From: Sedimentisphaerales bacterium
Lineage (GTDB): Bacteria; Planctomycetota; Phycisphaerae; Sedimentisphaerales; SM23-30
Assembly: GCA_963666285.1 (NCBI GenBank)
Contig: OY762711.1
DNA length: 64,000 bases
Direction: 5' to 3' (one strand)
The notes below the pieces were generated by a model. The model saw only the letters and a list, made by a program, of their open reading frames with translations. It did no database searches and was not told the DNA's origin. Both the position numbers and the translations under genes were made by a program. This document shows positions 40,750 through 46,700 of the stretch, piece after piece. Numbering within the stretch: position 1 is the stretch's first letter; the number at the start of each line of letters is the position of its first letter.

Positions 40750-42500
40750 TATTTAGCACCAGGCGAAACTTGGAGCAGAGCAGGCATAGCCTGCACCAGA
40801 CCTCAGCAGCCTCGCTGCGTTCGGACCAGACATAGTCTGGACCAGACCTCGCTTTGCTCGGTAACGAATAGAGATTGTCAATTCTAGAGGGCAAATCAGA
40901 ATGATTTGCCGAGGCGTGATACAAATATTCAGTTTTTCAAAGAGCAAAATTTATGTAAAAGACGAAGTATTCGTCGTTGTTAAGTTTTAACGAGAGCAGT
41001 TTTTTTGTCGGTAATCATTTTTATTAGCTCTCTACAATTGGACGGTATGTCGAAAGTGCGCTGATTTTTTTGATGGGATGGTTGGTTTGGAAGTTTGTAA
41101 GGTGTTGTGGATAAGCGGGATAATAATTTTGAAGATTTTAGATTTTCGCGATTTGGTGGATGTAAAAACGAGATGATTTTTTCGAGAAAATCAGGGGCCA
41201 GGGATCAGGTTTCAGATGCCAGGGAAGGTTGCTCGCTACCGCTCGCGGGTAATTGATGGGTAACGGGAGGTGTGCGGAAAGGTAACGGGACAGCGCGGAG
41301 GTGGGACGGCGGTGAAAAGGGGTGCGGATTTGAACGGCGGGGAATTGCGGGCTGCGGACAGTATACGGCGGAACGTTGAATGGGTGCGGCGGTATACGGA
41401 CTGGAACGAAGCGGAGAAGCGACGAGCTACGCTAAATGAAAATGAATAATGAAAAATGAAAAGTTGAGGTGTCCGCTTCGCGGACGGCTTGTTTTAAACG
41501 GCTACGCCGAACGACGGAAGGTCGTTAGAGATTAGAGCAGGTGAGCAGAAGAACAGGCAATCAGCAGCGAGCCAACAGCGGCCAGCGAGCAGCCAAGCTG
41601 CTAGAGATTAGAGCAGATGACAGTGGAACAGGAGGAAGATAAATACGTGCTACGCACTCTGGCACATCATTGGACAAGTCCAATGATGTGAAGGTGTCGC
41701 TACGCAACCTGTTTGAATAATGTGCCGAGCTCCGCCTGAGGCGGATTTCAATCAGCTCAGCGTTCCCAGGAGTGAAGGTGTCGCTACGCGACCTGTTTTA
41801 AACGGGTTCGGCGAAAAGCAGAACCATCAATGAACGCGGATGAACACTGATAAGATGTTGCTAACGCGACGGATGTTTCATGCTCAGTGTTACCAGAGGT
41901 GAAGGAGGGGTTAAAAAACGGAATGAAATTGAAGAGTGCGGGGATATAAGAACGAATGCATGGCGGGTTCAGGGAAGAGTTGCGGCGGGGAGGGGATTTT
42001 GCGGATATTTACGTAAGTTGTTATTTTTGGATTGTGGGCGGACCAGATGCCGCGAAGCGGCATCTGAAGTCTGAAGTTTGAAGTCTGAATTCTGAAAAGA
42101 TGGTGTTCGCCTAGCGGCTCACAACTTATTTTAAAGCTGTTGCATATTTAAATTCAGAATTATGAAAAAGATTGGCAACCACGAAAATTCACGAAAGAAC
42201 ACGAAAAAAAATACTGTTGCTCGCAGAGGACGCAAAGATCGCAAAGAATATTACCTGGCCATGAAGGGAATGCGTTAAATTTAAAATTAAAAATTAAGAA
42301 TTGAGAATTAAAAAGAACTGAAAAATACAAGGCTGCGATAAGTACCAATAATTATAAGATGGCTTGCTTCAGCCTTCGTTAAAGCTATGGTTCGACAAGA
42401 CCGGACGTGATTAATAATTCTGAACCACTGATGCACGCGGATGGACACCGATAAGAAAATGTTTAGATAACTTGACGGTAAATTTTACAACCACGAAAAT
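40750..42500. repeat. Non-coding mosaic of short tandem repeats and hairpins (part 1)
   Basis: No credible ORF; 7-mer and 9-mer tandem runs, recurring AGGTGTC-hairpin-TTTTAAA modules, REP-like palindromes. Confidence 0.75.
42176..42210 (+). repeat. Empty (uninterrupted) IS target repeat
   Basis: CAACCACGA-AAAT-TCACGAAAGAACACGAAAA is the sequence obtained by joining the flanks of either IS copy. Confidence 0.9.
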
Positions 42501-42619
42501 ACAATGAAAGCCAGAATATTCCTGTAGCATGGCTTGTGTTATAATACACAATAATTTTAGCACGAGCTGTCACAGGGACGCTCAAATATTTAACCAATTT
42601 TATACGGAGTATTCTGGCT

Positions 42620-43666
42620 ATGAAGACTATTATGTCAATTGATTTAGGAAAATTCAAGAGTGTAGTTTGTTTTTATGAGGTAAAAAGCTGTAAGGCTATA
42701 TATAAGTCGTTTAAGACTAACCCTCAAGAGCTTCATGACCTGGCAGTATCTCACCCTGCTGATCTTATTGTATTTGAGGCTTGTGATATCATAGGCTGGA
42801 TTTGTGACCTTTTTGACACCCTGGAATTAAAATATGAAGTGGCAAATACTAATACCGGCGAATGGTCTGGCAGAAAATTGAAGAAGAAAACAGATAAAAA
42901 GGATGCATTTTGGCTGGCCAAGCGTGCTGCTTTAGGAGATTTATCAACTGTCTATGTTCCTAAAAAGGAAATTCGAGAGAAACGATCTTTAATTAATTAT
43001 CGCCAGAGCCTTACAGAACGGATAACTCAGGTAAAAAATACTATTCGTTCTTTATTAAATGCCCAGGCGTATTCGTTGCCGTCAGGCAGAAAGTGCTGGT
43101 CTAAGCAGAATCTGGAACAGTTAAGAAGTATGGCTATGCCAATGGATAAAGTTAAACCAGATGAGCTCTGGAAAGGCAATCTATGGAGCGAGCTTATATT
43201 ACTGGAACAATTAACAGACGCTTTGCAAGTAGTTGAAGATAAACTGGAAGAGTTAAATAGTACTGATGAAAAGGTAAAACTATTACAGACTGTTCCCGGA
43301 GTTGGCCCACGTCTGGCAGAGGCAGTTGCAGCTTATATTGATGATCCACATAGATTTAAGAATTGCAAACAAGTTGGCAGCTATATTGGTATGACACCGC
43401 GTCAGTACCAATCAGGTAATACAGACCGTCATGGGCGGATAAGTAAATATGGCAATAGGTTATTGCGAGCATTACTTGTTGAGGTTTGCTGGCTGGGTTT
43501 GCGTTGGAATCCATGGATAAAAGAAACATACGAAAGAATAAAGAGGGGAAGTAAAACTCGTGCAAAAATAGCGATAGTAGCTACAGCCCGACGGTTGTTC
43601 GTACGATTGTGGGCGATGATGCGAGATGGGACAAGTTGGCAGATGCCTGAATTGCAAAGTGTTTGA
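42620..43666 (+). CDS. IS110-family DEDD transposase/recombinase
   Basis: SIDLGK, FEAC, KTDKKDA (DEDD); TVPGVG; QYQSG; GRISKYGNRLLR. Confidence 0.95.
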   Translation: MKTIMSIDLGKFKSVVCFYEVKSCKAIYKSFKTNPQELHDLAVSHPADLIVFEACDIIGWICDLFDTLELKYEVANTNTGEWSGRKLKKKTDKKDAFWLAKRAALGDLSTVYVPKKEIREKRSLINYRQSLTERITQVKNTIRSLLNAQAYSLPSGRKCWSKQNLEQLRSMAMPMDKVKPDELWKGNLWSELILLEQLTDALQVVEDKLEELNSTDEKVKLLQTVPGVGPRLAEAVAAYIDDPHRFKNCKQVGSYIGMTPRQYQSGNTDRHGRISKYGNRLLRALLVEVCWLGLRWNPWIKETYERIKRGSKTRAKIAIVATARRLFVRLWAMMRDGTSWQMPELQSV

Positions 43667-43699
43667 TACCAATATAAGTAAAATATAAATATTACCTAT

Positions 43700-43900
43700 G
43701 ATTTTGCCCGATTGAAATCGATACGGAACCTTGGTCGTGCATTTGGGTTTTGAACCTGACACGAAAATTAAGCCGTATCGCAATATATATAATGGAACCA
43801 TGGCGTAAAATACAGCCTCGGACACTCCGGATAGAAAGATGAAACAATCAGGTAAATAATGATTCGCTACGCGAAAATTGTTTTAAATAGGTTTATCGCA
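43700..43900 (+). ncRNA. Candidate bridge/seekRNA of IS copy 1 (boundaries approximate)
   Basis: Stem CGATACGG/CCGTATCG closes an internal loop holding TCGTGCATTT (complement of right target) and CACGAAAATT (left target). Confidence 0.75.
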
Positions 43901-44069
43901 TAAGGTCAAAAAGCAAAAAACGAGGCGGTGTAAAACCGCCCCGGCTTCTTGACAACTTGCAACGCTCGGGTTGCTCCTCAGCAGAGCCCTATCCTTTGCA
44001 AGATAAAGGAATTATAGCAAAAATGAATAAAATTAGAAAATTAATGTTGCATTCTGGCTTCATAGAAAT

Positions 44070-44544
44070 TCACGAAAGAACACGAAAAAAAATACTGTTG
44101 CTCGCAGAGGCCGCAAGGTTCGCAAAGTATCATTTCAAATATGGCACTGACCGACACGGGCAGGCACAGGCAAACACGGTAGGCAGCAATCAGCAATCAG
44201 CAATCAGCTACGAGCGGCGAGCGAACAGTGAAGAGGAAATACGTGCTGCGCACTCTGGCACATCATTGGACAAGTCCAATGATGTGAAGGTGTCGCCTGG
44301 CGGCGAGGATGATTAAAAAATAATGGGGAGGCTTGTTTATTCACCCGGTTGAAACCGGGGGCTACCAAAAATTAGCAGTCAGCGGCGAGCGATGCTAAGT
44401 GAAAAATGAATAATGAAAAGTGAAAAGTTGAGGTGTCCTGATATACGTTGACATCAGGAATAATTCGCTGTCGCTCACGACTTATTTTTAAGCTGTCGCA
44501 TATTTAAATTCAGAATTATGAAAAAGATTGTCAACCACGAAAAT
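44070..44544. repeat. Repeat mosaic between the IS copies (part 2)
   Basis: Re-uses modules from 41430-41700 and 42125-42260; CAATCAG tandem run; GTAG-type hairpin at 44342-44367. Confidence 0.75.
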
Positions 44545-44663
44545 ACAATGAAAGCCAGAATATTCCTGTAGCATGGCTTGTGTTATAATACACAATAATT
44601 TTAGCACGAGCTGTCACAGGGACGCTCAAATATTTAACCAATTTTATACGGAGTATTCTGGCT

Positions 44664-45710
44664 ATGAAGACTATTATGTCAATTGATTTAGGAAAATTCA
44701 AGAGTGTAGTTTGTTTTTATGAGGTAAAAAGCTGTAAGGCTATATATAAGTCGTTTAAGACTAACCCTCAAGAGCTTCATGACCTGGCAGTATCTCACCC
44801 TGCTGATCTTATTGTATTTGAGGCTTGTGATATCATAGGCTGGATTTGTGACCTTTTTGACACCCTGGAATTAAAATATGAAGTGGCAAATACTAATACC
44901 GGCGAATGGTCTGGCAGAAAATTGAAGAAGAAAACAGATAAAAAGGATGCATTTTGGCTGGCCAAGCGTGCTGCTTTAGGAGATTTATCAACTGTCTATG
45001 TTCCTAAAAAGGAAATTCGAGAGAAACGATCTTTAATTAATTATCGCCAGAGCCTTACAGAACGGATAACTCAGGTAAAAAATACTATTCGTTCTTTATT
45101 AAATGCCCAGGCGTATTCGTTGCCGTCAGGCAGAAAGTGCTGGTCTAAGCAGAATCTGGAACAGTTAAGAAGTATGGCTATGCCAATGGATAAAGTTAAA
45201 CCAGATGAGCTCTGGAAAGGCAATCTATGGAGCGAGCTTATATTACTGGAACAATTAACAGACGCTTTGCAAGTAGTTGAAGATAAACTGGAAGAGTTAA
45301 ATAGTACTGATGAAAAGGTAAAACTATTACAGACTGTTCCCGGAGTTGGCCCACGTCTGGCAGAGGCAGTTGCAGCTTATATTGATGATCCACATAGATT
45401 TAAGAATTGCAAACAAGTTGGCAGCTATATTGGTATGACACCGCGTCAGTACCAATCAGGTAATACAGACCGTCATGGGCGGATAAGTAAATATGGCAAT
45501 AGGTTATTGCGAGCATTACTTGTTGAGGTTTGCTGGCTGGGTTTGCGTTGGAATCCATGGATAAAAGAAACATACGAAAGAATAAAGAGGGGAAGTAAAA
45601 CTCGTGCAAAAATAGCGATAGTAGCTACAGCCCGACGGTTGTTCGTACGATTGTGGGCGATGATGCGAGATGGGACAAGTTGGCAGATGCCTGAATTGCA
45701 AAGTGTTTGA
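44664..45710 (+). CDS. IS110-family DEDD transposase/recombinase
   Basis: Protein identical to 42620..43666. Confidence 0.95.
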   Translation: MKTIMSIDLGKFKSVVCFYEVKSCKAIYKSFKTNPQELHDLAVSHPADLIVFEACDIIGWICDLFDTLELKYEVANTNTGEWSGRKLKKKTDKKDAFWLAKRAALGDLSTVYVPKKEIREKRSLINYRQSLTERITQVKNTIRSLLNAQAYSLPSGRKCWSKQNLEQLRSMAMPMDKVKPDELWKGNLWSELILLEQLTDALQVVEDKLEELNSTDEKVKLLQTVPGVGPRLAEAVAAYIDDPHRFKNCKQVGSYIGMTPRQYQSGNTDRHGRISKYGNRLLRALLVEVCWLGLRWNPWIKETYERIKRGSKTRAKIAIVATARRLFVRLWAMMRDGTSWQMPELQSV

Positions 45711-45743
45711 TACCAATATAAGTAAAATATAAATATTACCTAT

Positions 45744-45944
45744 GATTTTGCCCGATTGAAATCGATACGGAACCTTGGTCGTGCATTTGGGTTTTGAACC
45801 TGACACGAAAATTAAGCCGTATCGCAATATATATAATGGAACCATGGCGTAAAATACAGCCTCGGACACTCCGGATAGAAAGATGAAACAATCAGGTAAA
45901 TAATGATTCGCTACGCGAAAATTGTTTTAAATAGGTTTATCGCA
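45744..45944 (+). ncRNA. Candidate bridge/seekRNA of IS copy 2 (boundaries approximate)
   Basis: Same sequence as 43700-43900. Confidence 0.75.
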
Positions 45945-46113
45945 TAAGGTCAAAAAGCAAAAAACGAGGCGGTGTAAAACCGCCCCGGCTTCTTGACAAC
46001 TTGCAACGCTCGGGTTGCTCCTCAGCAGAGCCCTATCCTTTGCAAGATAAAGGAATTATAGCAAAAATGAATAAAATTAGAAAATTAATGTTGCATTCTG
46101 GCTTCATAGAAAT

Positions 46114-46700
46114 TCACGAAAGAACACGAAAAAAAACTGTTGCTCGCAGAGGCCGCAAAGATCGCAAAGAATATTACTTGATCATGAAGGGAGTGGAGTT
46201 AATGAAGGAGAATAGAAGAGCGAAGCATTGCTAAGTGAAAAGTTATTAAGGTGGCCGCCTATCCTTCGACTAGCTCAGGACAGGTCGGTTCACGACTTGT
46301 TTTAAAGCTGTTGCTACGGATTGTAGAAAAAACGGATTGTGGTAAGTTGGGGAAATGGAATTTTGACTGTAACTAATGAGTGGGGTTGCGGTATAAGAGT
46401 GTGTGGTGTGAGTGAAGATGACATCAGGAATAATTTGCTTTCGCGAACTATTTTAAAGCTCCGCAAACACAGAATCTGACGCAAATAACGCACCTGTGAA
46501 TGCTTACAAGAATGAAATGAGATGGAAGCGATTGGCAGGTGGGCAGCTAAAGGCAACGGCTGTCAGCGGACAGCAAGCAGGATGGGATGTTAATTCCACA
46601 TTGTGCTGCGCACTTCGGCACTTTTCAGGCGGAGCTGAAAAGTGGAGGTATTGCCTGGCGGCGAGGCTTGTTACAAATGATGAGAATATCGGGATGGTTT
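46114..46700. repeat. Repeat mosaic (part 3)
   Basis: Right half of the target unit, then further AGGT-hairpin-TTTTAAA-type modules (46249-46306, 46420-46456, 46646-46678). Confidence 0.7.

Follow-up and report, generated by a model that had tools for sequence, protein, structure and literature searches.

The 64,000-bp window analysed here (contig OY762711.1 of a Sedimentisphaerales bacterium, assembly GCA_963666285.1; G000:C1:672001-736000 of a genome of 6.35 Mb in four contigs) carries two copies of an insertion sequence (IS) of the IS1111 type. The element is intact, occurs in nine near-identical copies and probably moves as an excised circle, which would find CACGA|AA(A)TTCACGA sites by means of a small RNA from the region behind the recombinase gene. 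The boundaries of the element, its number of copies, the motif targeted, the match between guides and targets and their covariation in relatives are direct observations, and the element is a recently active member of the IS1111 group. As RNA-guided targeting by IS110 and IS1111 elements has been known since 2024 (PMC11187229, PMC11208160), the element alone is ordinary; some novelty lies in what the target class is and in the fact that three element families of one genome use it.

An IS1111-type element in two copies

Between an iron-uptake operon (end 40646) and a large gene (start 47037), two open reading frames (ORFs) encode one and the same 348-aa protein. It matches the profile NF033542 with 213 bits (cut-off 140) as well as PF01548 and PF02371 (DEDD_Tnp_IS110 plus Transposase_20), which places it in the IS110 family. 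The residues D8, E53, D92, D95 and S265 are present, and judging from the IS621 motifs, they presumably are the catalytic ones. Comparison with the IS621 structure (PDB 8wt6) gave an E value of 3.5e-14, the sequence similarity residing mainly in the C-terminal part. The element comprises the following features:

42497..44066, + strand: IS1111-type element copy 1, 1,570 bp
42500-42505, + strand: -10-like TACAAT in the left end
42504..42517, + strand: left sub-terminal inverted repeat, 7 bp inside the element end
42620..43666, + strand: IS110-family recombinase gene of copy 1, 348 aa
44047..44066, + strand: right end of copy 1
44047-44052, + strand: -35-like TTGCAT in the right end
44051-44063, + strand: right sub-terminal inverted repeat, 3 bp inside the element end
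44541..46110, + strand: IS1111-type element copy 2, same sequence as copy 1
44664..45710, + strand: recombinase gene of copy 2

The sub-terminal inverted repeats of 14 and 13 bp (starting at 42504 and 44051) differ by one indel and leave extensions of 7 bp on the left and 3 bp on the right. With 123 bp 5' of the gene against 400 bp 3' of it, the element shows the long 3' non-coding end of the IS1111 group. PMC11187229 defines the group by sub-terminal inverted repeats of 11-13 bp, which leave 7 bp outside them on the left and 3 bp on the right, and by an extended non-coding stretch downstream of the gene. Joining of both ends is predicted from the sequence to create the promoter TTGCAT-17-TACAAT.

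Junctions and target sites

An earlier note on this stretch had described two filled sites and one empty site, and this arrangement is indeed present, with the empty site at 42176-42210 and the copies at 42497-44066 and 44541-46110. The sites and their surroundings are:

41151..46310, no strand assigned: host array, made of non-coding repeat modules, in which all three sites lie
42176..42210, + strand: empty target, 4-A allele, with three CACGAA words at 10-bp spacing (42180, 42190, 42200)
42488..42496, + strand: left half of filled site 1 (CAACCACGA)
44067..44540, + strand: 474-bp spacer, in which a mosaic of repeat modules known from all over the genome lies between the right half of site 1 and the left half of site 2
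46111..46190, + strand: right half of filled site 2, followed by CGCAGAG/CGCAAAG words at 9-bp spacing

Both copies begin directly after CAACCACGA (42488-42496 and 44532-44540) and end before AATTCACGAAAGAACACGAAAA, with AATTCACGAAAGAACACG next to the right end. The sequences downstream of the three host units differ, as the note had stated; they belong to a repeat family, D2, and show 94% and (ungapped) 75% identity to the reference. The 4-bp core AAAT that the note placed at the junctions is wrong. The left junction contains 4 A in 9/9 genomic copies, while the right one contains 3 A in six copies (one of them at a looser site), 4 A in two and 5 A in one, the last being a copy within a CRISPR spacer which also lacks a T at its right junction. 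As the left junction is constant and the right A-run varies, AAATACA belongs to the element and AAAT is not a duplicated core.

When the flanks were joined on the basis of the 7/3 ends and without duplication, intact sequences with 3, 4 and 5 A were reproduced, i.e. the insertion leaves no target duplication, as is typical for IS110 elements. The intact 3-A allele CAACCACGAAATTCACG was found at G000:C1:918226, the 4-A allele at 42176 and a 5-A form in viral contigs. Given the A counts at the right junctions, both window copies entered a 3-A allele; the filled sites derive from CAACCACGAAATTCACG and not from the 4-A allele at 42176. The variation of the A-run is not a homopolymer error, because contigs from short-read runs, which may stem from the source sample, contain both 3-A and 4-A junctions. 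The same one-base slippage occurs in a relative with many copies (G062), where AAGGTGTCCG and AGGTGTCCG were found.

A predicted guide RNA matches the target sites

The 3' end of the element folds better than shuffled sequences (z -2.9), and the following parts of a seek/bridge RNA were predicted:

43719..43780, + strand: predicted target-binding hairpin of the seek/bridge RNA
43735..43744, + strand: 5' guide, which could pair with the top strand to the right of where the element is inserted
43760..43769, + strand: 3' guide, identical in sequence to the left half of the target with the core, so that it would pair with the bottom strand
43785..43838, + strand: likely donor-binding region; by eye, its GATAGAA corresponds to the right end of the element itself
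45763..45824, + strand: predicted target-binding hairpin of copy 2

The 5' guide matches 8/9 positions at seven family sites and 7/9 at two looser sites, and the 3' guide 5/5 positions at all nine. The top-strand match comes first, which is the order given for IS1111 elements, namely 5' of the bottom-strand match (PMC11187229, section 9).

Relatives of the element were collected at three levels: a match was present in 24 of 201 genomes of the order, in 14 of 401 of the class and in 3 of 25 of the family. On its own target the 5' guide scored 7.68/9 compared with 3.65 on the targets of others (13 element types), and the 3' guide scored 4.1/5 compared with 1.38 (15 element types). In 100,000 permutations neither observed score was reached even once.

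Several observations speak against the proposed guide function or limit these statistics. One position of the 5' guide is mismatched at all family sites alike. Moreover, the guides can pair with each other in part, which in the predicted fold closes some of the loop. From the 23 element types with both ends, ten were left out for the 5' guide and eight for the 3' guide: four without a detectable 5'-guide anchor, four near kin and, for the 5' guide only, two with cut right flanks. One of the scored anchors was set by hand, own pairs as well as control pairs could be scored in any of three registers, and related element types are not statistically independent. Furthermore, no circle junction was among the joints listed for the short-read contigs, an assembly form that drops rare variants.

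Taking these points into account, we consider the following course of transposition probable. The element would be excised as a circle whose joined ends form the TTGCAT-17-TACAAT promoter; RNA from the 3' end would be made and bound by the recombinase; its two guide segments would select the two halves of the CACGA|AA(A)TTCACGA motif; and recombination would take place within the shared A-run, with no target duplication and with tolerance of one extra or missing A.

As a donor guide, AAAATACA at about 43807 was rejected because it sits in a stem which varies among relatives. The 3' end beyond the predicted guide RNA (43840-44046) has more hairpins. Sequence like 43963-43995 is also found, between flanks that are unrelated, on contigs from other organisms, suggesting a small shared module. 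In a second sample (run X3; window 43770 and 42987-43358), contigs of the element break at 43770, inside the predicted guide hairpin, into unrelated sequence, possibly owing to a further insertion in a related strain.

Landing sites in the genome

All nine copies follow CCACGA in non-coding DNA. Seven are located in the repeat family seen in the window, one in a looser copy of it and one inside a Cas12a CRISPR spacer. None of the nine sites lies in a stop-free frame of 100 aa; for comparison, a frame of 150 aa is missing at 13% of 300 sites chosen at random. The guide-predicted 14-15-mer occurs 11 times in the genome with at most one mismatch, compared with 1.1 expected occurrences, and all 11 are phased repeats by eye; with two mismatches, 22 sites compare with 13.8 expected. 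CACGAA at lag 10 is moreover the commonest 6-mer repeat with this spacing in non-coding chromosomal DNA. The excess of near-perfect sites together with this ranking indicates that the motif is not due to chance.

The ninth copy sits in spacer 10 of a 14-repeat array beside cas12a, cas4, cas1 and cas2 (type V-A; G000:C1:3248295-3250718, L175). This spacer has a length of 29 nt and contains three CACGAAA words, so long repeat flanks are not required for insertion. The earlier idea that the element uses host repeats as a safe harbour agrees with the non-coding location of 9/9 sites; the interruption of a CRISPR spacer, in turn, indicates that the element follows sequence and not harmlessness.

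Whether the guide suffices deserves consideration, as the recombinase might in addition read a feature of the phased repeats such as a bend, a structure or a bound host protein. The only two filled sites with two mismatches are both phased repeats, several two-mismatch sites outside repeats are empty, and ACCACGA precedes the element at 9/9 filled sites although its first bases are not encoded by the guide; for ISPpu10, a stem-loop of the target acts as second determinant (10.64898/2026.03.19.712850). These numbers are small, the guide alone already restricts the near-perfect sites to the 11 phased repeats mentioned above, and the copy in the CRISPR spacer lacks long flanks altogether. We regard a second determinant as unlikely. 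The natural sites provide readable rules for IS1111 guides, namely one-base slippage next to the crossover, tolerance of a central mismatch and no need for long flanks. These rules can be tested directly and are relevant for the programming of IS1111 recombinases.

Spacer 1 of the CRISPR array is also a phased repeat arm (AACCACAGATGGACACGGA), hence 2/13 spacers stem from the repeat class. Spacers 1 and 10 have no match in their own genome at up to four mismatches. A protospacer was sought among viral sequences, and the five matches to the CRISPR spacer (three contigs) were rejected as they share the core only and represent further arms. The left junction of the element has no exact match in the viral contigs. 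Spacer 2 (C1:3248393) matches the own chromosome at C1:5307714 with one mismatch in 26, in a stretch of higher GC content that is possibly an integrated mobile element.

Origin of the two copies in the window

The two copies are identical over 1,570/1,570 bp, as the earlier note had assumed, and the identical run including the shared flank extends over 1,605 bp. The note's distance of 475 bp becomes 474 bp with the element ends defined here. On sequence grounds, the copies most likely represent separate insertions into pre-existing, diverged repeat units. Their left flanks belong to different repeat subtypes, each of which also occurs before empty sites, and as these flanks differ, tandem duplication is unlikely. 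The 474-bp spacer aligns with only 52% and 56% identity to the up- and downstream stretches that a tandem duplication would have made identical. Together with the seven further copies in the same motif class, this bears out the note's view of independent, recent insertions in the same orientation. Altogether, four of the nine full copies in the genome are identical, two of them megabases away (C1:4653015, 4025554), and the others differ at 1 to 16 alignment positions, which fits recent activity.

Alternatively, the pair could go back to one insertion by recombination, either by tandem duplication or by integration of a circle, composed of the element and 474 bp of repeat DNA, into a resident copy. 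In favour of this are the identity and direct repetition of the copies and, as expected of such a circle, a right half-site at the start of the spacer and a left half-site at its end; modular circles are known from IS110 members (10.1101/2025.01.17.633520). This origin is nevertheless improbable: besides its low identity to the neighbouring stretches, the spacer has no full-length close match elsewhere (best long match 73% over 464 bp), and the identity of the left flanks is limited to 9 bp, ending at the first base left of CAACCACG. As the distant copies at C1:4653015 and 4025554 are equally identical, the identity requires no local duplication. That the second copy is an assembly artefact, as the highly repetitive region and the lack of any short-read contig spanning both copies might suggest to the detriment of two separate insertions, is highly improbable, because each copy has distinct flanks, the short-read contig depth on the element (274 and 229 versus about 27-39 for single-copy pieces, i.e. 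about 8-9 copies) agrees with the nine assembled copies and the spacer pieces show single-copy depth.

The note had also suggested that the two copies could delete or mobilise the DNA between them. This DNA consists of repeat modules only, so that composite mobilisation would carry no gene, and no evidence of such mobilisation was found. A joint in run X3 that skips copy 1 exactly was not taken as an empty allele of this site, because it equals the empty sites at C1:912838 and 3963060. The element was not found in the three genomes of the same genus searched (completeness 72-98%), and in the two of them extending far enough beyond a DtxR/FeoA-like neighbour gene, no such array was seen by eye.

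The host repeat array and the target class

The modules of the host array recur in 191 clusters elsewhere, making up 0.7% of the chromosome. At least three other loci cover 98% and 100% of the first two non-IS stretches of the array and 48% of the third. The array is built from modules in the same direction: 7-bp tandems, small palindromes and phased arms. Modules of the spacer have up to 133 matches elsewhere; its 119-aa ORF has no family match. Integron attC sites, imperfect palindromes of the form RYYYAAC...GTTRRRY, flank gene cassettes; the sites studied here bound no ORFs of at least 100 aa across them.

The target module itself consists of three CACGAA words 9-10 bp apart, the spacing that the 7-base words show in arms around GxxExxY genes (see below). 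It is a direct triple repeat and not a GC-rich palindromic hairpin, and thus differs from repetitive extragenic palindromic (REP) sequences and bacterial interspersed mosaic elements (BIME); other modules of the array are palindromic (I1). Between 40600 and 47100, no Rfam match was obtained at E<=1. Among 40 arms in the chromosome, just one pair of neighbours is on opposite strands.

The pattern ACCACGAA-N4-CACGAA was present in 15/41 close relatives (reversed control: 2 hits) and in 32/301 genomes of the phylum (control: 2 hits). In three motif-rich relatives, most occurrences lie where two ordinary genes are separated by a short gap; in one case the motif stands where a GxxExxY gene begins. 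Four-helix-bundle genes (10 hits) were rejected as partner of the motif, as the eight inspected were often flanked by other short repeats and not by the motif. In viral contigs (L176-L180), CACGAAA triple arms were observed between genes of phage-like contigs, one pair being inverted.

Three IS1111-type families use the target class

The genome contains two more IS1111-type families which have their own matching guides and insert into the same motif class at positions of their own:

G000:C1:2394581, 1590953, 5026694, 5746177: second family, four copies, 34% identical over the full protein
G000:C1:3804251, 5397362, 6012047: third family, three copies, 27% identical over the C-terminal half

The four-copy family cuts at the same CCACGA|A position, with 3/4 copies in the ATGGACACG subtype and the fourth in a variant. 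The three-copy family cuts the opposite strand at AACCA|CGAA. Pattern-based locus scans yielded only distant relatives with 27-32% identity, two loci in genome contigs and seven in metagenome contigs.

Besides the window element, 5/29 related element types have reconstructed targets that match a strict arm pattern; others are similar by eye only. We did not conclude convergence from the transposase tree: it requires at least six changes of the 'phased target' label on starred branches, and 29/500 shuffles were as low. Moreover, the label was set by eye with one matching row left unlabelled, and the long branch of family c is unreliable.

Other repeat classes serve related elements as targets: those at L007, L011 and related loci (G062, G068) insert at AATTA|AGGTGTCCGG or AGGGGTCAG and carry matching guides, as does an element at L030 (G056) that targets TTGAG|ATCGCCACGTC.

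Similarity of the targets to arms around GxxExxY nuclease genes

In sequence and architecture, the target class resembles arms which, across the phylum, surround small, uncharacterised nuclease genes of the GxxExxY type. In relatives, a PF13366/TIGR04256 gene is bracketed by arms which are often inverted, whereas the arms in the window genome run in the same direction and no such gene is present. The arm-class pattern was found upstream of 7/11 GxxExxY loci, from genomes chosen for the motif, compared with 2/143 controls. This pattern was fixed on the 11 motif-chosen loci before 30 new loci were scored, of which 13 had it upstream, 11 reversed downstream and nine on both sides, compared with four and two of 348 control windows. 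In addition, 66 rebuilt empty targets were compared with GxxExxY loci. For a sister element with 66% protein identity, the target agrees at 93% with the sequences on either side of a GxxExxY gene of its own genome, over 113 and 79 bp and in direct orientation. Two targets of the window element match GxxExxY flanks in another genome with 93% over 27-28 bp.

The target very probably is one member of a widespread class of triple repeats with a phase of 9-10 bp that bracket GxxExxY genes elsewhere and appear as gene-less leftovers here. We further suggest tentatively, with doubt slightly outweighing belief, that it forms the end of a mobile nuclease cassette (GxxExxY) not described so far, and that in several IS1111 lineages the guide RNAs were reprogrammed more than once to fit variants of this arm. 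Four results stand against the link to GxxExxY genes. The genome, which is 97% complete, contains no PF13366 gene; inverted arms are very rare in it; in 85 IS loci, no GxxExxY gene turned up next to an IS; and the guide-predicted targets of four relatives did not favour GxxExxY flanks of the own genome over those of other genomes. An own GxxExxY gene as the source of the repeats was rejected, there being no PF13366 match and only two weak tblastn hits of 33 aa.

If the cassette exists, the IS elements would parasitise another mobile element, a cryptic one, its leftover arms would form a widespread class of landing pads, here divided among three families by their 5' guides, and RNA-guided IS targeting would be linked to an uncharacterised element. 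Insertion into the ends of another mobile element has reportedly been seen for other IS1111 members, IS4321/IS5075 targeting the inverted repeats of Tn21 and IS1383 the ends of IS1384. Unlike in those cases, the putative host element, the GxxExxY cassette, is not a described transposon.

Relation to known systems

The element resembles ISEc11, ISPa11, ISKpn4, ISPst6 and ISPa25, elements with a 3' seekRNA, in its DEDD recombinase, its sub-terminal inverted repeats with 7/3-bp extensions and its long 3' non-coding end, and likewise in having two predicted guides with the top-strand match first and a repeat as target (PMC11187229). According to the same source, ISPa11 targets REP and ISKpn4 attC, and the transposases of ISKpn4 and ISPa25, which are only 46% identical, share the attC target. 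In contrast to the REP and attC sites of ISPa11 and ISKpn4 as presented there, the target in the window is a linear, phased direct repeat and not palindromic. It further differs from what that source reports on the ISEc11/ISPa11/ISKpn4 group by natural sites with one-base slippage beside the crossover and by three families of one genome using the same class.

IS621 (PMC11208160) recombines a circular donor with a short target under the guidance of an RNA, around a core common to both, and the same is predicted for our element. IS621 differs as a member of the IS110 group which has its RNA in the left end and the opposite order of guides.

REP targeting by insertion sequences has been published (PMC1525189). 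Like our element, ISPpu9, ISPpu10, ISPsy8 and ISRm22 land in intergenic repeats of an abundant family (PMC1525189, 10.1101/2025.01.17.633520, 10.64898/2026.03.19.712850). The repeat found here differs in that an identity with REP is not supported; it has no Rfam match.

The earlier note had not recognised the target class as a described one, and no description was found in open-access full text, a scope outside which ISfinder, subscription papers and supplements lie. Nor was anything relevant to it among the open-access matches listed for GxxExxY (alone or with repeats), the four-helix bundle/heptamer, small dispersed repeats, CACGAA with insertion sequences and IS110 in CRISPR spacers.

Five hits of Y1 transposases were also obtained. 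The contigs G000:C2, C3 and C4 each measure 65-67 kb. About 17 kb of C2 recur in C3 and 7 kb in C4, and C2 has little in common with the chromosome; the three are possibly related plasmids or phages.

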